Below, one piece after another: positions 866-55,124 of a stretch of 64,000 bases of DNA; the first letter of the stretch is position 1; the number at the start of each line of letters is the position of its first letter. Below the pieces are notes generated by a model. That model searched no databases, was not told where the DNA came from, and saw only the letters and a program-made list of their open reading frames with translations. The stretch spans positions 542,131 to 606,130 of the forward strand of contig OY969116.1 in the NCBI GenBank assembly GCA_963698075.1. The letters run 5' to 3'. The position numbers and the translations under genes are program-made. The stretch is from an uncultured Candidatus Berkelbacteria bacterium (lineage in GTDB: Bacteria; Patescibacteriota; UBA1384; UBA12157; JAENIV01).

Positions 866-1008
866 CTGCGGGAAAATTCTAAATTCTAATATCTAAATCC
901 TAAACAAATTCTAATGTTTTAAATTCTAAATTACAAACAATTTATGAATTTTGAATTTGTGATTTGGAATTTGTTTAGAAATTCGGATTTAGGATTTCGG
1001 ATTTGTCA
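866..1008. repeat. AT-rich palindromic MITE-like element (ggatttcggattt family), full-length copy with inverted-repeat arms
   Basis: The left arm tctaaatcctaaacaaattctaa is the reverse complement of the right arm ttagaaattcggatttaggattt. The right half is homologous to 54658-54749. Confidence 0.6.
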
Positions 1009-1674
1009 TTAAAATTCTGCCAAAATTTTAATGACTTTCACTGTCTCTTTTTTCAAACGATTGGTCGCCCGAATCTCAATATTATTTAATCCTGGCTGGA
1101 GTTTGACGCTTTCATGAAAATTACCCTTATCATCAATAAAAATTGTCTGATCATTAATTGCCAAAGTGACTCCCTCATCGGTTTTACCAATAATCTCCAC
1201 GCTATCTTGGCGAATCACCTGATCAGCCACAGGTGAGGAAATTTCCAAATTCGGGGGTGAGGTAAAATTCCTGACTGAATAAAAAATATATCCCAGCAAG
1301 GCGGCGACAAATAAAACAGCTAGCCCCAAAATAATTGTTCTCGGTGTCAGATAGATTTTATTTTCTTTAAGATGAATTTTAGGAGAAATTGGCCGAACAT
1401 TGCCGACTGTTCCCCGTTCCTGCCGATAAAGCAGGATTAGTTCCTCTTTAGGAGCGCCTAAAAAATCAGCATATTTTGACAAAAAACCGATCGTGTAAAC
1501 ATCTTCTGGTAATTGGCTATAATCACCCTTCTCCAACGCCACAAGGTATTTTAAACGAACCCTGGTTTCTTCTTCGGCCTGCTCTAAAGTGAGACGGTTA
1601 CGACGACGATAAACTTTTAAGCGCTCGCCTAATGTTTTAGGACTAGGAAGTTGTCTGTGGGCAAATTCTTTCAC
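1009..1674 (-). CDS. RodZ-like cytoskeletal protein (N-terminal XRE-type HTH, one TM helix, C-terminal domain)
   Basis: The N-terminus LGERLKVYRRRNRLTLEQAEEETRVRLKYLVALEKGD resembles an XRE-type HTH. A hydrophobic helix (IILGLAVLFVAALLGYIFY) follows, then a C-terminal beta-rich domain. Confidence 0.55.
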   Translation of the reverse strand: MKEFAHRQLPSPKTLGERLKVYRRRNRLTLEQAEEETRVRLKYLVALEKGDYSQLPEDVYTIGFLSKYADFLGAPKEELILLYRQERGTVGNVRPISPKIHLKENKIYLTPRTIILGLAVLFVAALLGYIFYSVRNFTSPPNLEISSPVADQVIRQDSVEIIGKTDEGVTLAINDQTIFIDDKGNFHESVKLQPGLNNIEIRATNRLKKETVKVIKILAEF

Positions 1675-1717
1675 GTTTTAATTAAAGCAAAGAGTACTAA
1701 ATAGTCAAATACTTAGT

Positions 1718-1906
1718 TCATTGACCAAAATGGTGCTTAATTTTGTTCCAATCATCCATATTGAGAGAGCCAGTGGTCTCGTTTTGGCCCGAAGTGGTCG
1801 CCTCGGTGATTTTGGTCTTCAAAAATCTAATACTAAAAAAGCAAGCCACAATAAAAGCGAGAATCAATAAAACCACAATTAAGTTTTCTTTCCTGTCTTT
1901 AATCAT
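1718..1906 (-). CDS. Small single-pass membrane protein (hypothetical)
   Basis: 62-aa ORF in operon orientation with one hydrophobic helix (LIVVLLILAFIVACFF). An antisense ORF of equal length also exists. Confidence 0.35.
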   Translation of the reverse strand: MIKDRKENLIVVLLILAFIVACFFSIRFLKTKITEATTSGQNETTGSLNMDDWNKIKHHFGQ

Positions 1907-1932
1907 CTCGTCGTTTCACTCCTCCATGTAAA

Positions 1933-2544
1933 CTACTTGGTATAAACTTTTAAAGTGATGGTGGCCACTGAATCTTTATCTAATCCTTGCTGCGAGGCTA
2001 AATTAAAGTTATTCACTTGAACAAAATAAGGTAGATTTTCCAAATTTTTCAAAAAGAGCGCAAAACTGGTAAGTGTGCCTTTTAATTCAACGGTGTGCTC
2101 AATCGAACTGGCCGCACTCGTCTTGTTCGCACCCGTTGCTTGAGTAGCGTTGAAATTGACAGAAATTTGGACTCCGGCCGCTTGGGCGGCTTGTTCCAAA
2201 GCATTCTGATATTCCAAAAGGTTATCCGAAGAAGGTAGGCCGGCTTTGATTTTCGCTTCAAAGGGGGCGACTTCCTCCCAATTGTTCTTAAGATTAGCAT
2301 CAAGAGTATTATTCTTAATCGCGGTCATCAGTTGATTTTGCTTTGTTCCAAGCGCTGACGCTTTTTGGCTTAATCTAAGGCTAATATAGAGAATCAGCCC
2401 AGCGGCGATCACCAAAGTAAAAATAATAATTAGAAAAGATTTTCTAATCTGCCTTGTAATCCTCAATTGCGGATCTTCGGTATAGAGTCGCAATCGTTCG
2501 GTAACTGGGATTAAATTTGGCTTGACGTTTAAGTTAGTTTTCAT
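1933..2544 (-). CDS. pilO: Type IV pilus assembly protein PilO-like
   Basis: It lies directly downstream of the pilM/N gene. It has an N-terminal TM helix and a coiled-coil/periplasmic domain, the size and architecture typical of PilO. Confidence 0.5.
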   Translation of the reverse strand: MKTNLNVKPNLIPVTERLRLYTEDPQLRITRQIRKSFLIIIFTLVIAAGLILYISLRLSQKASALGTKQNQLMTAIKNNTLDANLKNNWEEVAPFEAKIKAGLPSSDNLLEYQNALEQAAQAAGVQISVNFNATQATGANKTSAASSIEHTVELKGTLTSFALFLKNLENLPYFVQVNNFNLASQQGLDKDSVATITLKVYTK

Positions 2545-3953
2545 TTTCTAGTTAAGGCCTCTTTTTTGAAAGTTATGCTGAGGGTAAAATTGACCAACTG
2601 CTCTTGGCTAAAATTGGTTGACGGCATCTGGACCGCCGAGACAAAATCTAGGGTCGAAATTGTGTCGCGAAAATTCGATAAAACATCGCGGGAAGTTGCT
2701 TGACCAATGATGGTTATAGTCTCGCCTGTCCCGGGATAGCTTATCGTCGTCAAAGTCACTCCTTGGGGTATATTTTTCGAAATTTCTTCGATTGGCCCTG
2801 ACCAAAAAGAAAGCTGATCTTCGATTTTTGCTTCTTTCTCGATTGAAGGTTTTAAATCATTGATATTTTTTTGGAGTTCGACGAGTTCAGAATTTTCGCT
2901 CTGACCTTGAAAAAGTTTTGCCAACTGACCATCGAGATTATTACCTAAGTAGTTCAAAAAGACGAGACTTCCAAAAAACATTGCCACCAAAAGTAACGAG
3001 GTGGCGACAACTATATTGGCAATTCCCCCATAAAAAAGCAACTTTCTTTTTTCTTCCGCCGCCACTTTAGCACCGACAGGCAAAAGTGATAAATAATTAT
3101 CATCTCGGGCCTCTATTAGGCCGCGGATGCCGGCGCCAACCAACGGCAAAGTCTGAACTCTAAATCCAGAAATTTGGAAAATCTCCGGCGTGGTTTTGAC
3201 CTCTAAATTAAAGGTCTGGCCTAAAGTGTGAGCTAGTTCTGGTTTTGCCCCCGAGCCATCCAAGATAAGATTGTCAATTTGATTTTGATTTTTCTCAACG
3301 AGGTAAAAATTCATCACTCGCCTTATTTCCGCCACGAGATTTTTAAACTGTTGGTCTTTGGGACCAACAATCTGAAACTCCCGAGCAAATTTGGGAAAAC
3401 CAGCACTGATAATTACCGAGGTCAAAATCTCTCCTTCGATATTTAAGACTAAAATGTTACCAGTCTTGCCAAAAACTCTTCCGATTGAACAGCTTTTGGG
3501 CTCGATGGCGATCGGCACGATTCCTGCTCGATCAAAAACCACAAGATAGTTGGTCAGATCTTTTTTGGTAATCGAAGAAATCATCACTTCCCCATCAACC
3601 TTCTGCCATCCCCAAGAGGTTTCTTCAATTTTACCCGGCAAGAGACTGGAAACATTGATTTCTATCGCTTCTTTCAGATCTTCTTCGGACAGATTAGGAA
3701 AAGTTTTGTAGGTCGTAAAAATTGCCGCTTCGGGCAAAGAAACAATCCAATGAGAACTGGAAAAATGATTCTTTCTTAAAAAATCTTTGAGAATTTGAAA
3801 AAATTGCTCTCCGTTAGTCAAGCGACCATTACTAACTAAACCGTCAGGTAACGGTGCTTCGGCGATTTTTTTTAAAATTAAATTTCGACCAGAATATCCG
3901 AGAAGAATCGCCCGGACGAATTTGGGATTTATCTCTAAGGCGGGAATTTCCAA
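2541..3953 (-). CDS. Type IV pilus assembly PilM (actin-like ATPase) fused to a PilN-like TM/periplasmic domain
   Basis: The N-terminal ~330 aa are PilM-like. A TM segment (GIANIVVATSLLLVAMFFGSLVFLNYL) and a PilN-like C-terminus follow. Its 4-nt overlap with the pilO start indicates an operon. Confidence 0.65.
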   Translation of the reverse strand: MEIPALEINPKFVRAILLGYSGRNLILKKIAEAPLPDGLVSNGRLTNGEQFFQILKDFLRKNHFSSSHWIVSLPEAAIFTTYKTFPNLSEEDLKEAIEINVSSLLPGKIEETSWGWQKVDGEVMISSITKKDLTNYLVVFDRAGIVPIAIEPKSCSIGRVFGKTGNILVLNIEGEILTSVIISAGFPKFAREFQIVGPKDQQFKNLVAEIRRVMNFYLVEKNQNQIDNLILDGSGAKPELAHTLGQTFNLEVKTTPEIFQISGFRVQTLPLVGAGIRGLIEARDDNYLSLLPVGAKVAAEEKRKLLFYGGIANIVVATSLLLVAMFFGSLVFLNYLGNNLDGQLAKLFQGQSENSELVELQKNINDLKPSIEKEAKIEDQLSFWSGPIEEISKNIPQGVTLTTISYPGTGETITIIGQATSRDVLSNFRDTISTLDFVSAVQMPSTNFSQEQLVNFTLSITFKKEALTRK

Positions 3954-3962
3954 CTGCCCCTC

Positions 3963-4532
3963 CTAATATGTTTCTTCCCACTTTTGAACGGTTAAAACTT
4001 CATCATTAACATTGACAGTGGCCATTATCTTGCGATAGGCCCTACCCACTTGAGCGGTGGAGGTTATTTCAAAAGCCGTGCCAGTGCCAGTTATCTTGAT
4101 TGTACAATTTCCATCTTGGATCGTAAAGCTTGGTGGTTGGCTTGAATCAGTTCTGGCTAATCTCATTAAAGCGTCCTCCAGACAGCCTCGGGCCAGAGCA
4201 TCGGCTCGCGTTGCTTGTCTGGCAACCTGGGAGATATTGACCTCAGAGGAGGATATCGTGGCCACGGCCAAAGCAATTGCCAAGGCAGCGGCAGTGATCA
4301 TCAAAATCGCCACTAACATTCCTTGACCAGGGTTCCTTGAAAAAATCGCCTCGGGTCGACCCGTTCGCTTTGGCCACCCTAGCCGACCTACTCGGTTGCT
4401 TCCGTTTCGCCTCGCGCCTGGCTGCGGCGAGTCGGAGCGCAACCTCGACCGGCGCGCGCTCAGGGTCTCACCTTGGCTCCTTCCATCAGTTTTAAGTTTA
4501 AAGTTGTTTTTCGCATGCATTTTTAGTTTCAT
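3963..4532 (-). CDS. PilX-like minor pilin N-terminal-domain protein. The true start is probably the ATG at 4317-4319; the upstream 71 codons are a GC-rich repeat element read in frame.
   Basis: MLVAILMITAAALAIALAVATISSSE...RADALARGCLEDALMRL matches the PilX_N architecture. Residues 1-71 (RRSRLRSDSPQPGARRNGSNRVGRLG...) are encoded by repeat copy 4347-4476. Confidence 0.45.
   Translation of the reverse strand: MKLKMHAKNNFKLKTDGRSQGETLSARRSRLRSDSPQPGARRNGSNRVGRLGWPKRTGRPEAIFSRNPGQGMLVAILMITAAALAIALAVATISSSEVNISQVARQATRADALARGCLEDALMRLARTDSSQPPSFTIQDGNCTIKITGTGTAFEITSTAQVGRAYRKIMATVNVNDEVLTVQKWEETY
4347..4476 (-). repeat. GC-rich MITE-like dispersed element, copy 1 (minus orientation, inside the PilX-like ORF)
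   Basis: The reverse complement aligns with 7229-7382 and 60717-60836 (gccaggcgcga...agtaggtcggctagggt...gaacgggtcgacccgaggc). Confidence 0.7.
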
Positions 4533-4680
4533 ATGTTGAACATAAGGAGCGAGTCATGTGCCTTCCAAAGTAAATCGCGCAGGCGAGGCGCATGGTTAAG
4601 GCCGAGCCGAGCGCTTAGGCCCAAAATCCACGCTGGGGATTTTGAGGCCGGTACTTTGAAGGCATTGACGAGAGACTTTT

Positions 4681-5199
4681 CTATTTCCCCTCCAATACTG
4701 CTGCGGTTTCGAATTCGCGAGAGAAATTATTTTGTTTAAAGGTTATTTTAAATCTTATTTGGACGCTTTGAGCCTGGCCATTGGCAAGATGTTTAAAAAT
4801 ATTTTCTGAGATATCGATCGGCGTCACTTCCACTTTTGAATCTGTCAGCGCCATTGCCTGTCCCCCGCCTTCTTGATAAAAAATTTGACCATTTTCTAAA
4901 GAAAAAATTACTGGCAAGGAATTGATCGTCAAATTTAAATTATTGGCGGGATACGTTCCGGAAATGGCGCTGGCTTGACTCGTGGCCAAACTCAAACGCT
5001 CACACAAAAAACGGGCGTTTTGGGTGACTTCTGTTTGACCTTGGGAGGCCCCGCGGTTCTGGGCAATCCGCGTCACCAAATCAATAACCACCACTAAAAC
5101 AATGGCCGTAATGGCCAAATAAATTAACAGCTCGATGAGAGTAATCCCAGGCCTTTTTCTTAATTTTAAATTTTTAATTTTAAATTTTAAATTTCTCAT
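4681..5199 (-). CDS. Type IV pilin-like protein (prepilin-type N-terminal cleavage/methylation domain)
   Basis: KRPGITLIELLIYLAITAIVLVV is a class III signal with Glu at +5. Confidence 0.7.
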   Translation of the reverse strand: MRNLKFKIKNLKLRKRPGITLIELLIYLAITAIVLVVVIDLVTRIAQNRGASQGQTEVTQNARFLCERLSLATSQASAISGTYPANNLNLTINSLPVIFSLENGQIFYQEGGGQAMALTDSKVEVTPIDISENIFKHLANGQAQSVQIRFKITFKQNNFSREFETAAVLEGK

Positions 5200-7200
5200 C
5201 TAATAGCTCCAATTTACTCGCACCCAATCAACGATGGGGCTCGTGGTTTCATCTTGGGTATCAAGACGAATTTTATAACGCAGATATCGAGCCGGCTGGG
5301 GGGCGGCAGCCGAATAAAGTCCCGTCCAAATATTTTCTCCTGTCTTAGTGGAATACCAGGTACCGGTACCATTTGGACCCGACCAATTCCAGGTAGCGTT
5401 ATCATTATTAGCGGCCAATTGAATCCTGACCGTCGTGTTGGGCGGTAAAGCCCCTTCTAAATTCCAGGAAATTCGATTAAAACCGCCGCCGCCAGGATTA
5501 CCGGTATCCAAACTTGAGGATATTAATTCTCCCCAAGGCACATAGACTTCGGTTGCCGAAACAATTAAATAATAAGATAAGTCAACAAAGCTCGAGTCAG
5601 TAAAACTCCCCCCAGAATTGGTTGATCTTGTGGTTAGCGAATTTATCCCATCCCAATTAAGCGTGTTATATTCAACCAAATTGGGATTCGATTGGTTAGA
5701 AATCAGATAATTTCGATTCGAGCTCGAACCGGGCGAAGAAAAATAGAGCCGAAATTGATGATTGGCTGGCAGCGTAATTGATGAAGAAAAATTATGTTCT
5801 ACCCAAGAAAAACTGGTGCCTAAAGTCGTCGTCGCGACATCGATAAAAGTCTCGGGGGGGTTGACTAAATTAACCCCCGCCGTCAAGTCGTATAGACTAA
5901 CATATAAATTATCGTTTGGCAGGTTGTTTGCCGAGGAAGCCACATACAAAGCCACTCCTGCAACTTCTCTTTGAGTTGTCAAAGTGAAAGTCTCCCCTTC
6001 AAACCGCGTCCCATAAATATTGCGGCTGGCCCGGGTGTCATAAGGATTACCTTCAAAAGTGTTGTCACTAAAACCCAAAAGATAAATTGGTTGTTGATTA
6101 AGCGCCAGCCAAGAAGTGCCGTTGTATCTTAAAGTATTAGCTGAGGGGTCGCTCCGGCCGGATTTGGGAACGATTGAGTTATTGGGCAGACTGGCGCGGA
6201 TGTTGATATAGCGACTGTTACTCGGTGTCTGGCCAGAGCCGCTCCATTGGACCACCAGATGATAAACATTACCGGCCACCAGCGGCGCTGGACTGGTTAA
6301 ATTGATCGTTTGCCAACCGGTCGCTCCAAAACTGGCGGTGTTTGAGGCCAAAAATGTTCCCGAGGGATAATGATTACTGCTGTCGTCATCAGCTTGGATT
6401 CCATATTGATAATTGACATTGGCGCCGTTACGTTGGCTGTCAATATAAATTCGAATTTGATTGACATTGCTACTTTGTTGAGCTGTAAAACGCATGGAGA
6501 CACGCCGATTGGCGGCATTGAGGCTATAAATATAAGTCGTCGTATTGGCGATGAATTGATTGCCATATTTTGAAGTTCCGGCGCTGGGAATCTTGGCCAA
6601 TCGTAAAGTTCCAGCGATGCTGGTATCAATGTCGCCCGCGGCCTTGAAATTTTGAGTTATTGAAAAAAATTTATTACCGCTCCAATCATTTTGTCGCCAC
6701 AAGGAATTTTGATAGCGTCCGAGAAAATTTACGAGCTCAATTCCTGCCGAGCCTGGCCAAGTCACCTTGACAGTAATTTTTTGTGTTCCAGGATCGTCGC
6801 GGCCGGGATTGTAAGTGGTTTCAATATTCCCTGCGCCGTTATTTCCGGTACGAGAGACATTATCAATCTGAATTTGGCGGTTAAAAGTTAAATTATTGAT
6901 TGTGATTTGTTCATCACCAGCAGCTAGCGACCAACTATTGGCATTATTAATAGCGTGGTAAGGGTTACTCGATCCTTTATTATTGGTTCCTAAGGGTCGA
7001 TAGAGATTATTCCAATTTTCCATCTTTAAGGCCTTGGCGGCCGCCATTGCCTCAGCAGCAAGGAGTCTGGCGCTGTCGGTTCGCCAAGATTCACTTCCCC
7101 CGCGAATACCGACTAAAAATAAAGGAATAATCCCGGCCAAAACAAAAGCAATTACCCCCACCCCGATGATTGTTTCGACTAAAATTTGCCCTTTTTTCAT
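5200..7200 (-). CDS. Large (666 aa) type IV minor pilin-like protein, possibly a tip-associated adhesin
   Basis: The N-terminus KKGQILVETIIGVGVIAFVLAGII is prepilin-like. A long Asn/Ser/Thr-rich beta-type extracellular region follows. Confidence 0.6.
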   Translation of the reverse strand: MKKGQILVETIIGVGVIAFVLAGIIPLFLVGIRGGSESWRTDSARLLAAEAMAAAKALKMENWNNLYRPLGTNNKGSSNPYHAINNANSWSLAAGDEQITINNLTFNRQIQIDNVSRTGNNGAGNIETTYNPGRDDPGTQKITVKVTWPGSAGIELVNFLGRYQNSLWRQNDWSGNKFFSITQNFKAAGDIDTSIAGTLRLAKIPSAGTSKYGNQFIANTTTYIYSLNAANRRVSMRFTAQQSSNVNQIRIYIDSQRNGANVNYQYGIQADDDSSNHYPSGTFLASNTASFGATGWQTINLTSPAPLVAGNVYHLVVQWSGSGQTPSNSRYINIRASLPNNSIVPKSGRSDPSANTLRYNGTSWLALNQQPIYLLGFSDNTFEGNPYDTRASRNIYGTRFEGETFTLTTQREVAGVALYVASSANNLPNDNLYVSLYDLTAGVNLVNPPETFIDVATTTLGTSFSWVEHNFSSSITLPANHQFRLYFSSPGSSSNRNYLISNQSNPNLVEYNTLNWDGINSLTTRSTNSGGSFTDSSFVDLSYYLIVSATEVYVPWGELISSSLDTGNPGGGGFNRISWNLEGALPPNTTVRIQLAANNDNATWNWSGPNGTGTWYSTKTGENIWTGLYSAAAPQPARYLRYKIRLDTQDETTSPIVDWVRVNWSY

Positions 7201-7228
7201 AATTTTATTCCTAATTTACGAATTCATG

Positions 7229-7382
7229 CGGCCGAGGGGAGCCCCTGAACGAATGGCGGTCTCGACTGCGCTCATTATCGATGAGCCAGGCGCGAATTGA
7301 TAAGGAAGCAGTCGAGTAGGTTGGTTAGGGAGCCTGCACTGCCGAAGGTAAGGCATTCATGTGAACGGGGCGACCCGAGGCC
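7229..7382 (+). repeat. GC-rich MITE-like dispersed element, copy 2 (intergenic)
   Basis: ggccgaggggagcccctgaacgaatggcggtctcgactgcgctc...gaacggggcgacccgaggcc. This is a GC-rich patch in an AT-rich intergenic region, homologous to the other copies. Confidence 0.7.
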
Positions 7383-7388
7383 AGTATT

Positions 7389-9037: not shown

Positions 9038-9048
9038 CCTTATTTCCC

Positions 9049-28756: not shown

Positions 28757-30364
28757 TCAGGCCTGGACCAGCCTCGCGAGCCCTGTGCCGCGACGGCGCT
28801 TGGCGATCTCGTCCGCCCCTGGCAGGAAGATATCGGCCTCGCCGAGCCCCAGGAAACGAGAGACCGTGTCCACCAGGTGGGCCTTCTCGCCCGCGGCAAC
28901 AGCGAAGTGATGGACAGTGGTCTTCCACTTCCCGTCGACGCCCAGGACGAGTGCCTCTTCGAGCTCATCGAAGGTGGCATCGTCCACGCCCACGTAGAAG
29001 TGGGTGCCCAGTGTCATGGGGCCGTTGACTACTAGCGCCTCAAAGGCAGCGAGCGAGAAGCTGACGCCGGCCGCGCTGTTCCGGTTGCAGAGCCGGGCCA
29101 GCGTCATTGGCGTCCCCTTCTCGAAGTTCCCTACACCATCGAGGAAGGCGTAGGCCGGCCGCGAGGTCGGGATGATCCAGCCCTGCCTGGCGACGCAGCG
29201 GGTGCAGTTGACCGAGGGGAACGGCCCGCAGTGCCAGACCAAGATCCCGATGATCTTTCCGTCATCGAGGATCACCGTGATGGTGATGTCCGCGAACATC
29301 GGCGGTTTGCCACAAGGGTCGAGGGCCTGAAGCATCATCATCGAGAGCAGGCCACCCCTGTCGGTCTCGCAAGCGACCGGCACGCCGTGGCGGAGCAGCT
29401 CACCGCCAACCATGCAGAGCATGAGCTGGTAGTTCTCCATGCACGCCGGCCAGCAGTTGTGGGTCAGCCCGTCGAGGTCGTACCTCAGGCAGAGTTCGAG
29501 CTCCGCGATGATCGCCGCGGCGATCCGTCTGGCCGCCTCAGGCGGGATCTGGCTGAGATCGATGCCGCGCACCTGCATCGCCTGACACTCTGCCTCGAGC
29601 ATCGGCTGGTCGGGGTCCTGAAGCAGGCTGACCACGCGTCCGAACAGCTCGACCTGATCGATGGGGACCACCTCGACACCGAACCGCGTCCCCAGGACCG
29701 CCGGGCTGCATTCGATCGCTTCGAAGGTGGGCTGGTCGCCGCCGATCTGGCCGATGCGCACGCCCCGCGACATGTTCCGTACTGCCCTAGCTGCGGCGAC
29801 GAAGTCGCGGAACTTGGCAATCTCCTTCTGGCTGCCGGGCTGGCTCTGGCCAACGTAGTCATAGTGGTAGACCCCGTAGTCGGCCACGAGCTTCGAGGCG
29901 GGCTGGAATCCACACCAGGCATCGGTCTCGCGCGTGCCGTCGGTGTTCGGGTAGCCATCGTAGGGCGCGAAGAGCAACACCGGTAGGCCGAGCTCCTGGG
30001 CGAGCACGGCGATTTCGTGCTCGCAGCCGTAGTTGCCGAAGCCCACCTCGAGCGCATCGGCACCCTTGAGCTTGAGGTCCGCCGCCAGGCGCAGCACATC
30101 TGTTCCCGGAGAGATCACACCGCCATCGATGACAGTGATGTCCTGGCGGCAACCAAGCTCTGCGAGCCTGGCTGCGTGTCGCTGGCCCGGTGCCTTCTGG
30201 CTGAAGACCTGCCGCGAAGCGGTCACCCGCACCAACCCGAGAGGCCACTGGGTACGCCGACATTCCTTCCACTGTCTTACCAGTTCTTCTGAACGGGTTT
30301 GCGTCGCCACGACTTTCACCTCCTCGGTTACCTCCAGGCTCACGCCTGTGAGGGGGACTGCCAA
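28757..30364 (-). CDS. L-fucose/L-arabinose isomerase family protein (COG2407-like)
   Basis: A 535-aa protein of about 62% GC with many spurious overlapping ORFs. The assignment rests on overall resemblance to FucI/AraA-like sugar isomerases and is uncertain. Confidence 0.4.
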   Translation of the reverse strand: MAVPLTGVSLEVTEEVKVVATQTRSEELVRQWKECRRTQWPLGLVRVTASRQVFSQKAPGQRHAARLAELGCRQDITVIDGGVISPGTDVLRLAADLKLKGADALEVGFGNYGCEHEIAVLAQELGLPVLLFAPYDGYPNTDGTRETDAWCGFQPASKLVADYGVYHYDYVGQSQPGSQKEIAKFRDFVAAARAVRNMSRGVRIGQIGGDQPTFEAIECSPAVLGTRFGVEVVPIDQVELFGRVVSLLQDPDQPMLEAECQAMQVRGIDLSQIPPEAARRIAAAIIAELELCLRYDLDGLTHNCWPACMENYQLMLCMVGGELLRHGVPVACETDRGGLLSMMMLQALDPCGKPPMFADITITVILDDGKIIGILVWHCGPFPSVNCTRCVARQGWIIPTSRPAYAFLDGVGNFEKGTPMTLARLCNRNSAAGVSFSLAAFEALVVNGPMTLGTHFYVGVDDATFDELEEALVLGVDGKWKTTVHHFAVAAGEKAHLVDTVSRFLGLGEADIFLPGADEIAKRRRGTGLARLVQA

Positions 30365-46767: not shown

Positions 46768-46801
46768 ATAGGAGAGAAGTTGTCAATAATAGAACAATAA
46801 T

Positions 46802-47442: not shown

Positions 47443-47596
47443 TTTTCAATGGCTTTGTCAATGCATTAAATCTTTACAAATTTCCCCTTATCTGATATAT
47501 TCAACGTAGTTGAATAAAATTTTCAATTATTAATTTTTAATTTTAATTTAATTTGAAATTAGTAACTTGAAATTTAAATTATTCCTGAAAGGAATT

Positions 47597-47929: not shown

Positions 47930-48013
47930 TAAATTTCTTCGAAATAAATCTTTTTTCCTTTAAGCTGCAGTTTTTAGCTTTTAATTTTAAGTTTTAAGTT
48001 TTCAAGGAGGGTA

Positions 48014-48628: not shown

Positions 48629-48727
48629 GTTAAGGTTAGGAAGCCAGTATGGTTTAGAGGTTAAGTCAGTAGGCCTTTTAGACCTAACCCATTAACCATT
48701 CCAGCGTCTTAACCCTAACCCTCTAAC
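48628..48727. repeat. MITE-like element with terminal inverted repeats ggttaaggttagg ... cctaacccattaacc (copy 1)
   Basis: The TIRs lie about 70 bp apart. The element is homologous to 60381-60486. Confidence 0.55.
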
Positions 48728-50254
48728 CTATTCAACAGTTGGTTCATGAGAACGGGCGAGATTTTCGGCCACATAGCCAATCAAGGGGAAAAGCTCTCTC
48801 GCAAAACTGTCCAAAGTAACCACGTTTTCATTGGATGAATACCAATCTGGCGGGCTGAAGCGCTCTTGGCCGAAACGCTTGGCCCAGTCAACTTCTGCCC
48901 CCAAAACCATTGAATAAGGCAGGTACTCTTCAAATTTACCCTGAAGCGCTTGAACCCCCGGGGCGGGTTTTTTGTCAGTTAAATATTCTCTAAATTCCAG
49001 CCATTCTTGAAGTTCTTGATTACCAAGATTAGTCCGCGCCGGCATAAAAGGCGCGAGCCGCACAATCACCGCCGCGGCAACCATTCCGCCGGCCCAAAAA
49101 AACAGACCATATTTAGGATCAGCGCCGAATATTGCCCCGAGCATAAAACCGGCGAAACTTAAGAAGAATAAAACTACGCCTGCATATTTCCACGCCAAGT
49201 GGACTTTGGCCGGGTTTTGAACAAAATAGCCGCGCTTGGTGGCCTCGTTATAAACTCCCAAATAAAATTTAGCAATTTTTCGGGAAAAAATGTGGCGACC
49301 AATCCGCATTTCGACATCAGCGACGCTACTTTTAATTGATCGGGGTAAAAAGACTTTTCCTAGCAATTCTTTTTCAAAATCTGATAATCCTTTCATTGAC
49401 CCAAAATCCGTCCCCCGGCGAATGCCAAAAGAAAATTGACCATTGCCTTTGTTGATAATGTAGATAAAACCACGTCTAGCCAAATCAATTAAAGTCGCGG
49501 CAATCTCTCGAGCGCCGACCACACCGTCAATCAAAACGCCGGGAATCGCCGGGGCGATTGTATCAGGCGGTCCCCCTAATTGACCGCGGATGGGGATCAT
49601 TTGGGCGCGTCGACGCTTTAAAATCATAAAAAGCATCAAAACAAGGGTGACTCCTGGCAAAACAATGGCAATGTAAAGCCAGATTTTTACCGGTAAATTA
49701 GTAATCGAAAATTCTAATACTTGCCAAAAATTTGGCTGGATCAAGCCCTTGGGTAAATCAGCGACAATCGTGAGGGTGGCTTGCGGTGAAATATCGGTCG
49801 CCTCATAAACTAAAGTTTGCGGATCGCTTAAATAAATTCTGGTCGAACCAATGCCATGGACAGCATAGACAATTTGGCGAACTTCTTCTGACTTAACTGG
49901 AGAAGGTAAGTGAACAATTCCTTGAAAAGCTGAGATATATTCACCAGTTGAATCAAAAACCAGAATTCTGAGTTCGTCATATTGCTCATAAAATCGCAGG
50001 GCGTGATTTTTCTTTTCGCCATCAATGGTGACGGTCCCGGTTTTACTAACCTCAATATTCATCGTTCTTTGATTAATCACTGAGTTAAAAGGTAAGTCTT
50101 TAAATTCGACTGCTGCCAAGGGTCGGCCAAAGATTTGCCAACCTAAAAAAACCAAGACCGCCACGCCGGCGAGGATGACAAAAAAGAAGGCTTTTTTTCG
50201 ATAAAAACCGATCTCACGAAAAAGCGCCTTAATCACTTCCCACGTTGACATCAC
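48728..50254 (-). CDS. DUF2207-like membrane protein
   Basis: It has an N-terminal TM helix, an extracellular domain and a C-terminal multi-TM region, in 508 aa. Confidence 0.45.
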   Translation of the reverse strand: MMSTWEVIKALFREIGFYRKKAFFFVILAGVAVLVFLGWQIFGRPLAAVEFKDLPFNSVINQRTMNIEVSKTGTVTIDGEKKNHALRFYEQYDELRILVFDSTGEYISAFQGIVHLPSPVKSEEVRQIVYAVHGIGSTRIYLSDPQTLVYEATDISPQATLTIVADLPKGLIQPNFWQVLEFSITNLPVKIWLYIAIVLPGVTLVLMLFMILKRRRAQMIPIRGQLGGPPDTIAPAIPGVLIDGVVGAREIAATLIDLARRGFIYIINKGNGQFSFGIRRGTDFGSMKGLSDFEKELLGKVFLPRSIKSSVADVEMRIGRHIFSRKIAKFYLGVYNEATKRGYFVQNPAKVHLAWKYAGVVLFFLSFAGFMLGAIFGADPKYGLFFWAGGMVAAAVIVRLAPFMPARTNLGNQELQEWLEFREYLTDKKPAPGVQALQGKFEEYLPYSMVLGAEVDWAKRFGQERFSPPDWYSSNENVVTLDSFARELFPLIGYVAENLARSHEPTVE

Positions 50255-50266
50255 CCTCCCTAAATC

Positions 50267-51214
50267 TTAGGTCTTTGCTATTTCAAAAATTAGCAGCTCC
50301 AAAGCCGTTCTTAACTCTATTTTACCAGTTTTTATCCGCACATCAAAATCGAGGAGTTTTGCATAAATTTGTTTTAGGTCCTCTAACGTGTATTTGGCCG
50401 CGATAGCGATGCTTTTTTGGACCACAAAAGGATGAAGACCAGATTTTTTGGCCAGCGTCCAGCGATTATTTGATTTTAGACGCTGGCTTAAATCCTTAAT
50501 CACCAGGAGATTGCGATACTGGTAAATAATCATCGTCAAAATATAAAGTTCATTGGCGCCGGTTTTTAAAAGCTTGTAAAGCTCCTTAGTCGCCGCCGGT
50601 AAATTTTTTTGCGCGGCCTCATCGATCAGATTAAAAATGTTCGCCTGAATTTGAGAATTAACCAAGAGTTCGATATTCTCAGTTGTCAGTTGTAAGTTGT
50701 AAGTTGTCAGTTTATCTATTTCATTCGTCATTCGCCACAAATCGTTGCCGATGTATTCGACAAGTTTTGAGATGGCCGCTGAATCAATAGCTCCGCCCCG
50801 GGTTTCGACTTCTTTTTTGACCCACCGTCGCAATGGCTCACTTTCTAATAATTTAAATTCTTCCATCTTGCCAGGCTGGTTAAGTTTTTTAAAGGGGGCT
50901 GTCCGGCGATCAGGAACACCCTCCTCAACAAAAACCAGGACCGTTGATTTGGGAACTTTGATCAGTGCTTCGGGAATTTTTTCTAAAATATCTTTCTTGC
51001 CATCTTTTAAAATATTTTCCACGATAACTAATCGTGATTTTGCCAAAAAGGGCATCGCCAAAATTTGGCGAATAAATTCGTCAAAAGTTATCGTTTTGCC
51101 ATCCAGCACGGCCAAATTCGTATCACCCAAAGAGGCAGAAATAAATTTCTCCTTGAGCGCTTTTAATTTTTGCCAAAGTCGATATGTATCTTCGCCATAG
51201 AAAAAAAGGATCAT
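50267..51214 (-). CDS. holA: DNA polymerase III delta subunit
   Basis: A 315-aa protein whose N-terminal region (ILFFYGEDTYRL) resembles DNA polymerase III delta. Confidence 0.6.
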   Translation of the reverse strand: MILFFYGEDTYRLWQKLKALKEKFISASLGDTNLAVLDGKTITFDEFIRQILAMPFLAKSRLVIVENILKDGKKDILEKIPEALIKVPKSTVLVFVEEGVPDRRTAPFKKLNQPGKMEEFKLLESEPLRRWVKKEVETRGGAIDSAAISKLVEYIGNDLWRMTNEIDKLTTYNLQLTTENIELLVNSQIQANIFNLIDEAAQKNLPAATKELYKLLKTGANELYILTMIIYQYRNLLVIKDLSQRLKSNNRWTLAKKSGLHPFVVQKSIAIAAKYTLEDLKQIYAKLLDFDVRIKTGKIELRTALELLIFEIAKT

Positions 51215-51298
51215 TTTCCCTCTTGACTTTTAGTCTACGCACATCATAACATATGTTATTTTAAGTTTAGCAAGCACGCTTGCCTAAGGGGAGGTACC

Positions 51299-52351
51299 TT
51301 GATGATCAAGCTCCAACCGGTAACGATCATTGGCTTGGGTTCATATGTTCCCAGCACCGTTCTCACTAATGATGATATCCGTGACCGGCGTCCCTCGGAC
51401 ATTCCAGAAACTGAATGGACCGGCGATGCCTGGATCTTCCCGCGCACCGGCATCAGAGAACGAAGGATTGCCCCCAAAGATTGGGGTTCATCTGATTTGA
51501 TGGTGCCGGCGGCTAACCGGGCACTCGCTGATGGAAATCTAGCTATCGGCGATATTGATCTGATTATCACTTCAACTTCTTTCCCCGACAAGGGTTCCGA
51601 CTGCCCCCGGACTTCCGAGATCTTCAAACATCTCATCGGCGCCCATCAAACCCCACTTTCGGTGACGGAAAACGCCGAATGCGCCGGGTTTGAGTGGGCC
51701 TCGATCCGCGCTCAAGAGATGATGACTCTCTACGGCTACGAGCGCGTGATGGTCGTCTCCGGCGACAAGACTAGTTCAGCCGCCAACCCCCGTGACCGCA
51801 AAACCTACCCTTTGTTCGGCGACGCCGGCGGCTGCGTCATTCTGGCCCCTTGCGATGAGGGTGACGGCTTCTTGGCCTCGGCTCGCGGCACCGATACCAC
51901 CTATATCGACGCCATTGAGATTCCCGCTGGCGGGTCGAAAATGCCAGCCACCCTGGAAACCGTCCAGCAAGGTCTTCATTATATGACAATGCCTGGCGGT
52001 AGCGATATGCTCAAGATCATTGGTGGTAAAGTCTTCCCCGACATTTGCCGCGAGCTTGTCGCTAAGGCCGGGATCTCCTTAGAGCAAGTCCGCCACATCA
52101 TTGCCCATCAAGCCAATATTCGCATCACCATTGCTGCTGAGAGGCGTCTTGGCACGCACCTCTTCAAGGAAACCCAGCTTTGGTTCGGCAATACCTCGGG
52201 CTCAAGCGTGCCTCTGGCTCTCGACACCCTCTATCTTCACGGCGATCTTGAGCCAGGTGATTACATCATCATCGTCGGTTTCGGCGCTGGCTTTATCTGG
52301 GGCGGCCTCTTGATGCGCTGGACCAAACCGCGGTTCCGATTCCAGGGGTGA
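51299..52351 (+). CDS. FabH-like 3-oxoacyl-ACP synthase III / type III KS (GC-rich)
   Basis: It has an active-site Cys in ENAECAGF and a His/Asn C-terminal half (HQANIRI, GNTSGSS). It is about 58% GC. Confidence 0.7.
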   Translation: MMIKLQPVTIIGLGSYVPSTVLTNDDIRDRRPSDIPETEWTGDAWIFPRTGIRERRIAPKDWGSSDLMVPAANRALADGNLAIGDIDLIITSTSFPDKGSDCPRTSEIFKHLIGAHQTPLSVTENAECAGFEWASIRAQEMMTLYGYERVMVVSGDKTSSAANPRDRKTYPLFGDAGGCVILAPCDEGDGFLASARGTDTTYIDAIEIPAGGSKMPATLETVQQGLHYMTMPGGSDMLKIIGGKVFPDICRELVAKAGISLEQVRHIIAHQANIRITIAAERRLGTHLFKETQLWFGNTSGSSVPLALDTLYLHGDLEPGDYIIIVGFGAGFIWGGLLMRWTKPRFRFQG

Positions 52352-52363
52352 AAGGAGGAGACG

Positions 52364-52690
52364 ATGAGAAGAGAAGTCTTCCTAGTTATCCGTCAGAATC
52401 CGGAGGCATTTTCGCTCACTCGTTTGGATGGTAATGTCACCACTATTCCCAATCTATGCCAACCACCCAAGGTATTCTTAGGCATTTCCGTCAATCGGGA
52501 TGAGCTGGGCGAAAATCCACCACTCCCCATCTTGCGCCGAGATCTTATAGGCGCATTGGCGCATCCAGTTTCTCCGCCCTTCGGTCAAGAAGACCAGCTC
52601 ATCGCCATCATGGTAGCTTCCGCGAAGGCTGATTGCAGCAGCCTTCGCGATTGCACCCTGGAAGAGGCCCTCACCCTCTGCGAACTATAA
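52364..52690 (+). CDS. Hypothetical small protein inside the biosynthetic island
   Basis: A 108-aa ORF with an RBS aaggaggagacg, starting 10 nt after the FabH-like stop. Confidence 0.4.
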   Translation: MRREVFLVIRQNPEAFSLTRLDGNVTTIPNLCQPPKVFLGISVNRDELGENPPLPILRRDLIGALAHPVSPPFGQEDQLIAIMVASAKADCSSLRDCTLEEALTLCEL

Positions 52691-52787
52691 TCCCGCCTGT
52701 TTACCAATCGATCTTTTCCCCGCCGCCCTTGAAAAGGGCGGCTTTCTGTATTAAAATATCTATATCCGCTAGGCTAGGAGGTTTGCC

Positions 52788-53291
52788 ATGGCCGGTATTC
52801 TCGATCTTTGCCCAGAGCCATTCCGCTTGCCCCAACCGCTCGCGCCGCGACTTTCCCATGGCGAAACTTGGATCCAGGTCGGAGCAGTTGTCGGCTACGA
52901 TCCGGAAACCAAGACCATCTACGCCACGCGCACTTTCACCGGCGAGGAAGAAATCAAGAATCCCGATCACTTCCCTGGATGGGTGATCATGGCTGGCGTC
53001 CTCCAGCAAGAGTTTGTCGCTCAGGCCGCTATCCAGTATGCCCTGTTCGACGCCCAATACGACGACTGTCTCTTCACCATCGTCCGAGTGGAGGCGGAGT
53101 TTCGCCAGCAGGTACCTGCTGGCACCGAACTCATGGCAATCTGCCGGCTCCTGACCTTGCCGAAGCCGGGCACCATCAAACTCGGCGATGCCGAATGCCA
53201 GCTATTAACAGCTGACTGTAAGCTGGTCATGTCGGCCAAAATCCGCTTCAAAGTCGTCACCAAAAGCAAGACGCCACTGGCCCAACTCTAA
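52788..53291 (+). CDS. FabZ/FabA-like hot-dog dehydratase
   Basis: HFPGWVIMAGVLQQEFVAQAA matches the FabZ catalytic His motif HFPGxPxMPGVL. Confidence 0.55.
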   Translation: MAGILDLCPEPFRLPQPLAPRLSHGETWIQVGAVVGYDPETKTIYATRTFTGEEEIKNPDHFPGWVIMAGVLQQEFVAQAAIQYALFDAQYDDCLFTIVRVEAEFRQQVPAGTELMAICRLLTLPKPGTIKLGDAECQLLTADCKLVMSAKIRFKVVTKSKTPLAQL

Positions 53292-53361
53292 CTGGGCCTC
53301 TTCCAGCGATCACCACCCCGCCTCCTCGGCGGGGTTCTCATATCTAGAGCTATTCTGATTA

Positions 53362-53958
53362 TTATTTAAGCGCTATTGCCTTTTCCCATTCCTTCTCCAG
53401 CCCCAATTTCTTAACCCACGAGAGCAAATATTTTCGATTGATATTACTGGCTTCTAAAACCGCTCTCACATCCTCCAGTTGTCTATCCGATCTGCTTTCA
53501 TGATACCATCGCAGTTTGGCGATAATGAGATCTTCTGGCGAAATAAATCTGATAAGTTTTCCGCCAATTTTTTTCTTTTTAGCGCGCTTTATTTCTAATT
53601 TTTGATGCTCATCTTGGCCTATCACAAAAAAATCGGCTTTGAGACCATATTCCGGCTCAATCAAATTAAACTCGCCCTTGTTTTTATAAGCAGCCAGCGC
53701 AGTATCTTTATTCAAATATCCAACTTTAAACTTCTTTAATAATCCTTCTGTTAGCTCTTCGATTTTCTCTCGAGAGCTAATTTCGATCACAATATCTAAA
53801 TCGGCCGTATAGCGAGGCCTGCCCCAGACTGACACGGCGACACCGCCCGAAACGGCATATTCGATTTTAAGCTCGTCTAAGGTTTGGCTTATTCCGACGA
53901 GAAACTGTTTGATGGTCATGTTTGAGTTCTTTGGCAAACTTGAAAAAATCATCCACAA
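53362..53958 (-). CDS. Nucleotidyltransferase-fold protein (AbiEii/MNT-like); likely start MTIKQ at 53919
   Basis: AVSGGVAVSVWGRPRYTADLDIVIE is the GS...DxD nucleotidyltransferase signature. Confidence 0.5.
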   Translation of the reverse strand: MWMIFSSLPKNSNMTIKQFLVGISQTLDELKIEYAVSGGVAVSVWGRPRYTADLDIVIEISSREKIEELTEGLLKKFKVGYLNKDTALAAYKNKGEFNLIEPEYGLKADFFVIGQDEHQKLEIKRAKKKKIGGKLIRFISPEDLIIAKLRWYHESRSDRQLEDVRAVLEASNINRKYLLSWVKKLGLEKEWEKAIALK

Positions 53959-54137
53959 TGGTTATCTTTTTATCCGCGGACATTTTTTTATAGATTTTGA
54001 TCTGCTTTTCTTCGGCTTTGTTCATCGCGATTTCATCATACAGCATGCCGCCTAATTTACAAATTCACCCTCACACCAAATATTTTGGTTGAGGGTCTAA
54101 CCTGTTTGACCCCACCTACGAAGTGGGGTTAGAATGG

Positions 54138-55124
54138 TCAGAGCAATTTTTGCTGGTTGTTAGCGCGTCGGGATTCCGGTAATCGCGAGATCAAGGATTT
54201 AAAACCGAGTTTATTTAGTAATTTGATAACGTTATTTTGATCGTAGTCGTGGATGCGTGAATCAGCTAAATTAAATTCGAGCGGGACATCATCAATAATT
54301 TTTGATAATTTTTGTGACAAAAATGCTTGCTCTTTGTTCTCTTTTAATAAGATTTGAACTTTTCCGCTAATTTTTGCAATATTTTTATAAATTTTTTCTA
54401 AATTTCCAAATTCGGAAATCAATTTCGCTGCGCCTTTTTCGCCAATCCCTGGCACCCCGGGAATGTTATCGCTCGGATCTCCTTTGAGCGCCTTAAAATC
54501 GACGAATTGTTTGGGCTCGAGTCCGTAGCGTTCGCGGACTTTCTCAACATCATACATCATCGCAGAATTTACGCCTCGCGCCATTGAATAAACCTTAGTT
54601 TGCTCATCCACCAGTTGTAGGCAGTCTAAGTCTCCGGTGACAATAATAAATTCAAGAGTAGGATTTAGGGTGTAGCGTTTAGCGTTTAGTGATTTGGAAT
54701 TTTGAATTTGGGATTTGTTTAGGATTTCGGATTTAGGATTTCGGATTTTCGCGATAATACTCGCGATCACATCCTCGCCTTCGTACCCTTCCACCGCAAA
54801 AACCGGAATATTCATCGCTTTCAAAATTTCTTTTGTATATGGCACTTGAGCCATTAAATCTTCAGGCATCGGCGCACGATGAGCCTTGTATTCAACATAT
54901 TCGATATGCCGTTTGGTCGGCTTGGGTAAATCAAAACCGCAGGCCAAATATTCCGGCTCTAAGGCTTTAATCGCCGCCAATAAGGCGCTCGTAAATCCAT
55001 AAGCGGCATTAAGCTGCACGCCTTTTTTGTTCGTCAAAGGCGGCAAGGCATAATAAGCCCTAAAAATCAAGGCAAAGGCATCAATTAGGACAAATCTATT
55101 CTTGATCATCTTTGCCAAAATCAT
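54138..55124 (-). CDS. 5'-3' exonuclease (Pol I N-terminal / FEN-like) carrying an in-frame repeat insertion. Start taken at MILAKMIK; the ORF-track start at 55268 is an upstream extension.
   Basis: FVLIDAFALIFRAYYALPPL...GDPSDNIPGVPGIGEKGAAKLI (H3TH). The stretch RNPKSEILNKSQIQNSKSLNAKRY is encoded by repeat 54658-54749. Confidence 0.75.
   Translation of the reverse strand: MILAKMIKNRFVLIDAFALIFRAYYALPPLTNKKGVQLNAAYGFTSALLAAIKALEPEYLACGFDLPKPTKRHIEYVEYKAHRAPMPEDLMAQVPYTKEILKAMNIPVFAVEGYEGEDVIASIIAKIRNPKSEILNKSQIQNSKSLNAKRYTLNPTLEFIIVTGDLDCLQLVDEQTKVYSMARGVNSAMMYDVEKVRERYGLEPKQFVDFKALKGDPSDNIPGVPGIGEKGAAKLISEFGNLEKIYKNIAKISGKVQILLKENKEQAFLSQKLSKIIDDVPLEFNLADSRIHDYDQNNVIKLLNKLGFKSLISRLPESRRANNQQKLL
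54658..54749. repeat. AT-rich MITE-like element (ggatttcggattt family), partial copy inserted in frame in the exonuclease gene
   Basis: gatttggaattttgaatttgggatttgtttaggatttcggatttaggatttcggatttt. Confidence 0.65.

Follow-up and report, generated by a model that had tools for sequence, protein, structure and literature searches.

A heptamer-built palindromic repeat in the rodZ-recA spacer and an exonuclease gene of a Berkelbacteria genome, and its relatives in many bacterial phyla

A 64,000-nucleotide (nt) stretch of DNA from an uncultured Candidatus Berkelbacteria bacterium (assembly GCA_963698075.1, contig OY969116.1, positions 542,131 to 606,130; the whole stretch is called the window hereafter) carries a small palindromic repeat in the spacer between a rodZ-like gene and recA, and a single arm of the same repeat, read in frame, inside the gene of a stand-alone 5'-3' exonuclease. 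Both loci are copies of one non-coding palindromic repeat, as a preliminary description of this DNA had proposed; the element is not specific to this organism, the family, assembled from heptamers of the type AAATCCN, spanning many phyla of bacteria. The reading preferred here, with a probability of roughly 0.55, is that the element behaves as a non-autonomous, essentially selfish palindromic repeat, analogous to the Rickettsia palindromic elements (RPEs). The features of the intergenic locus are as follows, the T-type being one of two arm types described below, and HMM denoting a profile hidden Markov model of the arms.

3 to 836, minus strand: recA, N-terminal 278 codons, running off the start of the window; the gene downstream of the intergenic element.
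859 to 871, no strand assigned: small GC hairpin CCGCA-TTC-TGCGG, seen in the fold, adjoining the outer end of the T-type arm.
874 to 935, A-rich strand plus: left arm, T-type, AAATTCT AAATTCT AATATCT AAATCCT AAACAAATTC..., from the HMM (868-911, E 1.7e-7), the inverted repeat and the fold.
936 to 1007, A-rich strand minus: right arm, AAATCCG AAATCCT AAATCCG AATTTCT AAACAAATTCC AAATCAC AAATTCA..., from the HMM (E 2.9e-13).
1005 to 1035, no strand assigned: hairpin with 15-nt arms, GTCATTAAAATTCTG/CAAAATTTTAATGAC, an inverted repeat with 93% complementarity.
1009 to 1674, minus strand: rodZ-like gene, an open reading frame (ORF); the gene upstream of the intergenic element.

Positions 866-1008 fall within the spacer from the rodZ-like stop codon (1009-1011, minus strand) to the recA start (836, minus strand), and the earlier placement of the copy in this spacer is correct. 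The segment 874-1004 is an imperfect palindrome with two heptamer-built arms; it had been called near-perfect, which goes too far, as the 41-nt arms of the inverted repeat within 866-1008 (874-914 / 964-1004) are only 76% complementary. The plus-strand RNA of 874-1004 folds into one long hairpin (-53.9 kcal/mol, z = -6.7), with none of 200 shuffles as stable, and within this hairpin the right arm 936-1007 pairs with the left arm. The recA assignment follows from the window translation together with the RecA_N and RecA_C domains in the syntenic gene of the related loci L140-L143, and the rodZ-like product matches Pfam HTH_25 (1e-18) and Glucodextran_B (3e-10), the latter as a C-terminal beta domain. 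The short hairpin at 1005-1035 covers the rodZ-like stop codon and the last 8 codons of the gene (VIKILAEF*).

The second locus, some 54 kb away, comprises the following features.

54138 to 55142, minus strand: gene of a stand-alone Pol I-type 5'-3' exonuclease / flap endonuclease, with the 334 codons of public record P0001.
54657 to 54743, minus strand: in-frame insert RNPKSEILNKSQIQNSKSLNAKRYTLNPT, 87 nt or 29 codons, from protein and DNA alignment with orthologs.
54659 to 54690, minus strand: arm of a second heptamer palindrome family, TAAACGC TAAACGC TACACCC TAAATCC (CTAAACGCTAAACGCTACACCCTAAA), exact 26-mer at 54664-54689.
54682 to 54752, minus strand: single AAATCCN arm, AAATCCG AAATCCT AAATCCG AAATCCT AAACAAATCCC AAATTCA AAATTCC AAATCAC, from the HMM (E 6e-16).

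Positions 54692-54748 are 87.7% identical to 948-1004 over 57 nt (blastn E 2e-15), and the local alignment of the two loci reaches a score of 84, against a maximum of 31 in 200 shuffles. The motif GGATTTCGGATTTAGG, allowing up to three mismatches, occurs 7 times (1.4 expected), and 6 of the 7 occurrences lie at the two loci. A profile HMM constructed from 131 arms, all taken from genomes other than that of the window, detects exactly three arms in the 64 kb, at 868-911 (plus), 936-1007 (minus) and 54682-54752 (minus), the next-best match having E = 0.66. Because a profile of foreign arms picks exactly these three, the resemblance goes beyond AT-rich low complexity, and the objection that nothing but simple AT sequence is shared fails. 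The right half of the intergenic copy had been said to recur at 54658-54749; an arm does recur, at 54682-54752, whereas 54659-54690 belongs to a different heptamer family.

The family was traced from five initial copies, of which the window and L001 contribute two each and L002 one, those of L001 and L002 residing in orthologous exonuclease genes. All five contain AAATCCNAAATCC, followed by 15 nt and then AAACAAATYCMAAAT. The pattern AAATCCNAAATCC-N(1-29)-AAACAAATYCMAAAT, scanned over one genome per GTDB species, matched at least 120 genome loci, and 13 IMG/VR viral contigs matched as well; in every match examined the flanks show the same palindrome. Read on the A-rich strand from the outside to the inside, an arm consists of about four AAATYCN heptamers, the core AAACAAATTC, and degenerate AAATTCN-like units (AAAATTCRAATNTTCAAAAYTCAAAAC) ending in ...CAAAAC. 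A complete element measures about 130-150 nt (median about 146 nt), with arms of about 60 nt and a loop of 0 to about 170 nt; a complementary partner is present for some 60-65% of the arms, the remainder being single. A variant heptamer is common, AATATCG being the hallmark of the T-type arm and AAGCACG that of the G-type arm. Among elements with both arms typed, 16 are heterotypic and 3 homotypic (binomial p ~0.002); as the two arms are usually unlike, the element is polar and its internal mismatches are conserved. The pattern chose one arm per locus and thereby inflated similarity there, so that the 93 non-selected arms were analysed separately: the consensus is unchanged, with a conservation of about 90% at heptamer positions 1-3 and 6 and in AAACAAAT, C or T at position 5, and a free choice at position 7. 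Directly ahead of the core, the uninterrupted AAATCCN-like heptamers number either 1 or 4 in most arms, and the count of 1 may be read as a variant heptamer breaking the run. Carrier genomes hold a further site about every 33 kb, the window itself having its three arms in 64 kb.

All genome matches listed are metagenome-assembled genomes (MAGs), including megabase contigs and closed MAG chromosomes; the large carriers include CAWGOT010000003 (3.1 Mb) and CP070694 (5.3 Mb). The labels among the matches listed comprise Planctomycetota, Desulfobacterota/Deltaproteobacteria, several groups of the candidate phyla radiation (CPR), Omnitrophota, Acidobacteriota, Nitrospirota, Dehalococcoidia (Chloroflexota), Verrucomicrobiota, Lentisphaeria, Chlamydiae, WOR-3, Elusimicrobia and Bacteroidetes, together with some Gammaproteobacteria and one archaeal bin. 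Taxon labels of some third-party bins may be wrong; the cross-phylum breadth is secure because the carriers include large contigs. BLAST searches gave a weak partial match only among PLSDB plasmids, to two Borreliella plasmids (75% identity over 56% of the query, E 3e-3), and none among the INPHARED genomes of cultured phages. The whole window gave no match to Rfam 15 at the gathering threshold; in E-value mode, window positions 600-1300 produced one weak, sub-threshold PhotoRC-I match (14 bits), and eight loci gave weak, sub-threshold matches to hairpin models of miRNA precursors. Searches limited to open full-text literature found no description of the element, whether by its DNA, by its encoded peptides, or under MITEs (short for miniature inverted-repeat transposable elements) of these phyla or small dispersed repeats.

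Close relatives differ in the presence of the element at both window loci. The rodZ-recA spacer has a length of 172 nt in the window and of 151 nt in L140 (RodZ 86% identical), both with the element and the small GC hairpin, the two copies differing by a one-heptamer indel. The spacers of L141, L142 and L143 are empty, with 16, 60 and 41 nt, respectively (RodZ 81, 72 and 68% identical), and here the stop codon leads directly to the ribosome-binding site. The GC hairpin is missing from these three empty sites and has therefore arrived with the inserted DNA, or forms part of it; at the place corresponding to window 859-871, L140 has CCCCGCC-AAA-GGCGGGG, with the stem changed on both sides, and GC hairpins resembling that of the window also adjoin arms in L006, L064, L086 and viral contigs. 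The tetranucleotide TGAC that follows the rodZ-like stop occurs in the filled sites only, as seen in the alignment with the empty sites. For the exonuclease, a tree of 36 orthologs was calculated with the insert columns left out. These proteins have two hypervariable loops; loop 1 holds an AAATCC insert in three distinct clades (P0001, P0010, P0016), all of which have sisters devoid of an insert, and one of the AAACCTG type in four distinct clades, and an AAATCC arm is found in loop 2 of other orthologs (L001, L002). Because relatives have empty sites at both loci, both window copies were gained; mobility of the element would be the cause of this patchiness.

The protein of P0001 is identical to the window exonuclease, its precomputed Pfam domains are PF02739 and PF01367, and those of its relatives that are named belong to Berkelbacteria or Patescibacteria. 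The ORF's annotated start, a TTG, overlaps a gene for a B12-binding radical SAM protein, and the true start may be an ATG a few codons downstream. The sense strand of the gene is the A-rich strand of the arm 54682-54752, and the reading frame through the copy is ...IAKIRNPKSEILNKSQIQNSKSLNAKRYTLNPTLEFIIVTGDLD; the arm 54659-54690, fused to the AAATCCN arm, is translated LNAKRYTLNP. The insert is a composite of single arms from two different palindrome families, and a metagenome scan with its window-specific junction gave no match. It is placed between the helix ...DVIASIIAKI and the strand EFIIVTGD, where the shortest orthologs have AKVKGEGLEF; alignment with these insert-less orthologs bears out the earlier view of a frame-preserving loop insertion. 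AlphaFold2, run on the ortholog alignment, predicts the fold of a flap endonuclease with confidence (pTM 0.80); of the solved structures, those of M. smegmatis FenA, E. coli ExoIX and the Taq 5' nuclease match it best. Residues 138-160 of the insert have pLDDT values (predicted local distance difference test) below 50, flanked by a confident helix (122-134) and a confident strand (164-169), and the insert is accordingly modelled as a disordered loop at a permissive site. In the ortholog alignment it falls between the conserved EGED and VTGD.D motifs, which in this fold carry the metal-binding carboxylates, the helix-to-strand turn between them facing away from the active site. As the A/C-rich strand is the sense strand, the insert is translated to a hydrophilic, disordered 29-residue loop between two catalytic motifs. 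In the ortholog P0010 (L126, 6360-6461), a short complete palindrome of the AAATCC type is read in frame with both arms (IRSTKSEALNKSQYLNNKNSNSFEFRNSNFEF); thus whole hairpins, beyond single arms, can survive in the exonuclease loop.

Such in-frame arms are not restricted to the exonuclease. Among 122 arms, 21 lie in long open frames, and in 18 of these 21 the A-rich strand is the sole open sense frame; most in-frame arms have no complementary partner arm, and about 4 of the 21 frames look spurious (GC-rich contigs, judged from the translations). Host proteins confirmed by Pfam are TopA, MnmA, CysRS, TsaE, UvrC, TrmD and an ATP-dependent DNA ligase. Further hosts suggested by the translations are LeuRS (L016), apparently with two arms and a whole palindrome, a UvrD-like helicase (L042), and a second TopA (L031) and a second MnmA (L059), in each of which the insertion seemingly occupies the loop that is also hit in the Pfam-confirmed protein of another genome. 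The A-rich strand encodes peptides rich in K, S, E, I, R, N, P and Q, whereas the opposite strand would encode peptides of F, R, I, S, D and G. It can be rationalized that the bias in strand and frame arises because hydrophilic, frame-preserving insertions in permissive loops would be those that survive. A search of a 5.8-billion-protein collection with the arm-encoded peptides returned 378 candidates, 33 of them with E <= 1, mostly short unnamed ORFs lacking Pfam domains.

The genomic context of the intergenic copies is typical of tolerated repeats. The orientation and distance statistics were obtained from simple ORF calls for full elements with callable flanks. Of 45 such elements, 22 lie between co-directional genes, 18 between convergent and 5 between divergent ones, and the flanking gene ends comprise 70 stops versus 34 starts; the gap to the stop codon is 13 nt or less in 40% of cases, and the median gap to a start codon is 64 nt. 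Elements may also occur in series: in L116 each of three consecutive intercistronic spacers holds one, and in L135, a viral contig, three elements are found within 4 kb, two of them in intercistronic spacers. Ribosomal protein (r-protein) operons harbour the element in four genomes, upstream of rplF in L012, L022 and L093 and upstream of rplN in L097, where the gene was read from the flanking translations; three of the carriers are labelled Desulfobacterota/Deltaproteobacteria and one Saccharibacteria.

In the interpretation as a selfish repeat, the 874-1004 copy together with the small GC hairpin was inserted between the rodZ-like stop and the ribosome-binding site of recA, in the common ancestor of the window genome and its closest sampled relative. 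The exonuclease insert is a fusion of an arm of the AAATCCN family with an arm of the second heptamer palindrome family. The elements would spread by insertion through a machinery acting in trans, and would persist where they do little harm, namely just past stop codons, in the spacers between cistrons, and, where a single arm has an open frame, in permissive surface loops of proteins. The closest parallel is provided by the RPEs, palindromes of about 100-150 bp that lie between genes as well as within housekeeping genes, where they keep the frame (Ogata et al. 2000 Science, as summarised in PMC10969869). Like the present element they are palindromic, of similar length, intergenic as well as in-frame in unrelated housekeeping genes, with a peptide compatible with the fold of the host protein, and have no known transposase. 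They differ in being confined to Rickettsia and in not being built from heptamers, whereas the present element has one cross-phylum consensus, in-frame copies that are mostly single arms, and two unlike arms. The likeness is one of analogy and not of membership, since the host belongs to the Berkelbacteria (CPR), a separation made without sequence comparison to the RPE families.

Several observations weigh against a purely selfish, decaying element and suggest, taken together, a constraint or function at the sequence level. Within-genome similarity of arms is barely above that between genomes (0.717 versus 0.686), and the two arms of one element are 0.695 alike, compared with 0.691 for arms of unrelated elements; because both values hardly exceed background, there are no signs of recent bursts or of compensatory evolution. 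Conservation of the core and of six of the seven heptamer positions holds in genomes ranging from 31 to 69% GC, the arms keeping a median GC of 31% in flanks of 31-69%, and only the free heptamer positions follow genome composition. In the mRNA sense, the G-type arm precedes the other in 16 of 20 non-redundant co-directional cases (two-sided p ~0.01), a bias that rests on crude ORF calls and to whose majority the window element conforms. The loop-1 inserts of the window and L001 share 89% identity, compared with 73% over the 180 nt of the gene next to them, an excess that may reflect transfer, gene conversion or constraint. Finally, no target-site duplication is seen when the filled recA spacers (window, L140) are compared with the empty ones (L141-L143), 55 element ends show neither direct repeats nor a common target motif, and a transposase or recurring neighbour is missing from the at least 120 loci (8-kb flanks).

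The most serious competitor, possible and yet clearly less probable than the selfish repeat, is a functional cis-acting RNA element, an AU-rich hairpin transcribed within operons and serving as an intercistronic signal for processing, stability or translation. Variants of this proposal include a substrate of the RNase III type, similar to the hairpins of phage T7 early mRNA, or an array bound by a single-strand RNA-binding protein; the in-frame arms would be by-products, and mobility would be compatible with such a role. It is the orientation bias and the closeness to stop codons that keep this role in play. Along these lines, the element sits in co-directional arrays and operons (rodZ-recA, the r-protein operons, the L116 spacers, L135), divergent gene pairs are rare among its neighbours (5 of 45), the asymmetry of T- and G-type arms is conserved, and core and heptamers are kept over the wide range of GC contents given above. 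A post-transcriptional role has also been proposed for the TAACTGA arrays, which likewise cross phyla (MacGregor 2015, PMC4679880). On the other hand, the arms lack compensatory co-variation, presence in close relatives is patchy at both window loci, and about a third of the arms, the in-frame ones included, are partnerless and hence unable to form the hairpin. There is neither an Rfam family nor a terminator-like signal, and no intrinsic terminator (GC-rich stem plus U tract) occurs on either strand in window 700-1200. Furthermore, the better-folding strand of the window element is antisense to the genes (-53.9 versus -44.1 kcal/mol). A strand test based on G-U versus A-C mismatches revealed no link to gene strand and was dropped, as the top strand, being set by the exact-pattern arm, biases the result.

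As regards transcription signals within the element, a sigma-70-like sequence, TTGTAA-17-TAGAAT, is found at 936-908 (minus strand), directed at recA; in the promoter scan this match does not exceed the shuffle expectation. The AGAATTT heptamers yield recurring TAGAAT hexamers of the -10 type. Outward promoters are known in other small repeats.

Somewhat less probable again, and at present a tentative thought, is a broader reading in which the AAATCCN palindrome represents one flavour of a pan-bacterial superfamily of heptamer palindromes (the others being TAACGC/TAAACCC, AAACCTG and AGTGATT), with a consensus held across phyla by conserved machinery, acting as an orientation-dependent intercistronic signal and, in CPR, as a major source of new loops. 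The machinery could be a sequence-specific nucleic-acid-binding protein or nuclease, or the arms could be regenerated in a template-directed manner.

A classical MITE, that is, a deletion derivative of an insertion sequence of the lineage, mobilised by the corresponding transposase via terminal inverted repeats, appears unlikely. The element does share with MITEs its small size (about 130-150 nt, under the limit of some 600 bp), the lack of coding capacity, the palindromic structure, the occurrence in many copies and the presence/absence polymorphism. Against this stand the missing target-site duplication at the recA spacer and at the 55 element ends, and the clustering of ORFs of at least 100 aa from the at least 120 loci (8 kb of flank each), which gave only housekeeping clusters, with no transposase and no recurrent neighbour, so that what the preliminary description had called MITE-like could not be retained as a MITE in the strict sense. 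Moreover, one consensus extends over many phyla instead of being lineage-specific, and because arms within a genome are barely more alike than arms between genomes, the element is set apart from recent MITE bursts, with a constrained consensus indicated.

Repetitive extragenic palindromes (REPs), arranged in bacterial interspersed mosaic elements (BIMEs) or REPINs, are extragenic palindromes mobilised by RAYT proteins (PMC3116915). They resemble the present element in being non-autonomous, in lying at gene 3' ends and in intercistronic spacers, in the absence of target duplications, and in being suspected both of selfishness and of effects on mRNA. Yet REPs are GC-rich, about 20-40 nt long, specific to a species or genus and tied to RAYTs, in contrast to the AT-rich, heptamer-periodic arms described here, with about 60 nt, a median GC of 31%, 21 of 122 arms in open frames and a distribution over many phyla; no RAYT-like gene was found near the at least 120 loci (8-kb flanks) or in the 64-kb window. 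Among other candidates considered, an integron attC site was rejected as the core GTTRRRY is not present, and ends of the IS200/IS605 type as there is no conserved target tetranucleotide; likenesses to the tRNA T-arm and to a universal 16S segment were dropped as chance.

In-situ expansion of heptamers, by polymerase slippage at each site in the manner of a microsatellite and with convergence on low complexity, is largely refuted and now very improbable. The arms are indeed composed of heptamers, the window and L140 copies differ by one of them, and in most prokaryotic genomes of one survey heptanucleotides form the most abundant class of long simple sequence repeats (Mrazek 2007, as cited in PMC4679880). 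Slippage is difficult to reconcile, however, with the recurrence of one ordered plan in other phyla and at sites not linked to each other (some four heptamers, a variant whose place is fixed, the AAACAAATTC core, and the inner segment), with a fixed number of heptamers (mostly 1 or 4 before the core), and with profile E-values down to 1e-16. The same holds for a plain heptamer array: Tandem Repeats Finder reports period-7 arrays, but the fixed plan, the unique core and the inverted pairs go beyond this. Heptanucleotide STRR repeats occur in heterocystous cyanobacteria. In this context one should consider the direct repeats of the TAACTGA heptamer in Beggiatoaceae, Cyanobacteria and Bacteroidetes (MacGregor 2015, PMC4679880), which share with the present element the heptamer unit, a patchy cross-phylum spread with no evident mechanism of transfer, the occurrence in r-protein operons and an occasional place in ORFs. 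They form direct tandem arrays that vary in copy number and mostly lie immediately upstream of start codons, whereas the present element is a palindrome of fixed architecture with a unique core, mostly just 3' of stop codons, as the counts of flanking starts and stops given above confirm.

Two further systems deserve mention. PARCELs are translated DNA with dyad symmetry and occur in a patchy manner in distant microbes, apparently by horizontal transfer; they differ in being 25-residue protein-domain repeats arrayed in surface proteins, coding by nature and not intergenic hairpins. Eukaryotic foldback transposons have long inverted repeats made of short tandem repeats, are kilobases long and in some copies coding; the likeness lies in the inverted arms of short tandem units, with no relationship implied. 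None of the systems compared joins a fixed heptamer palindrome, two unlike arms, one cross-phylum consensus and frequent in-frame arms.

An artefact of assembly or binning, with low-complexity sequence misjoined into MAG contigs, might be suspected as all genome matches listed are MAGs, PLSDB returned only the two weak Borreliella matches and cultured phages none, but is highly improbable in view of frames intact on both sides of inserts in conserved genes, the presence of the element on megabase contigs and closed MAG chromosomes, and the recurrence of the same insertions in independent NCBI, ENA, JGI and Logan assemblies, among them L140 (JGI), which shares the features of the recA spacer, and L001 (NCBI GCA_016844295), which shares those of the exonuclease insert.

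In-frame palindromes in essential genes have so far been treated mainly as a peculiarity of Rickettsia, and bacterial repeat families are normally lineage-specific. The element described here has one recognisable consensus across many phyla of uncultured bacteria and some viral contigs, and is missing from Rfam 15. In CPR genomes it repeatedly adds peptide loops, to flap endonuclease, topoisomerase I, MnmA, aminoacyl-tRNA synthetases and others, which explains part of the low-complexity inserts in CPR proteins as well as short, spurious 'hypothetical proteins' annotated on intergenic copies. It may serve as a marker for comparing insertion and excision among environmental populations, and it raises the question of which conserved machinery recognises or propagates heptamer-periodic hairpins in distant hosts.

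Other heptamer families were met along the way. The second family (TAAACGC/TAAACCC) also forms complete intergenic palindromes, which end at a start codon in the metagenome contigs L144 (1050-1190) and L146 (9940-10080); an ORF of L145 with an in-frame LNAKRFTLNP arm looks, from its translation, like CTP synthase. Heptamers of the AAACCTG type constitute a third cross-phylum family. In the window they are found at 62428-62452 as AAACCTG/AAACCTT, read TPETLNLKPF in the N-terminus of a valS-like gene; they also occur at L002 3346-3456, L010 and L092, adjoin AAATCC elements in L010 (labelled Acidobacteriota) and L092 (Planctomycetia), and correspond to the 'KTCNLKPET' loop-1 inserts that four separate clades of exonuclease orthologs carry. 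In the metagenome contig L147 (Ga0075108_10014581), a long (CCCTAAA)n array, a telomere repeat of the plant/algal type, matched the pattern of the second family only because the heptamer is shared, and is probably eukaryotic DNA and unrelated.

The earlier suggestion that the host lineage tolerates many insertions holds, as the tsaD, holA-like and valS-like genes of the window all carry repeat-derived segments in frame. Three such segments are found in tsaD (60500-61750, plus strand): a GC-rich one (…SERRSRLRSVFGESRMSQNGSRR…), an A-rich heptamer-like stretch at 61196-61251 (KFKNQNAKNKKTAIQKLK), and, at 61339-61440, AGTGATT / AATCACN arrays that form a whole inverted pair and are translated as EVISRDSGVINSDLSSDNQSPNHNKSHGKAANH. 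The holA-like gene (50267-51214, minus strand) contains 4.9 tandem copies of TCAGTTG at 50679-50712, in frame as LTTYNLQLTTEN; the reverse complement, CAACTGA, is one base from the TAACTGA of MacGregor 2015. In the valS-like gene, two copies of AACTCAAAAGTAAA are followed in frame by a GC-rich segment, GATGCCCTGAGCGAAGTGGCGGCGTCCCGAACGCAGTTCGAG, within 63597-63700. This segment presumably represents the GC-rich repeat family of the preliminary description, and similar GC-rich 'HPERSEGS…' inserts fill exonuclease loops of P0065 and P0076, from other Berkelbacteria.

Two genes of the window stand out as GC-rich in a genome of about 42% GC and were probably acquired horizontally. The first (28757-30364, minus strand) is a 535-aa ORF in the window's kilobase of 66% GC. 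The second, in a stretch of about 52% GC, is the B12-binding radical SAM gene next to the exonuclease (55163-56512, minus strand), whose domains were taken from the syntenic ortholog in L002.

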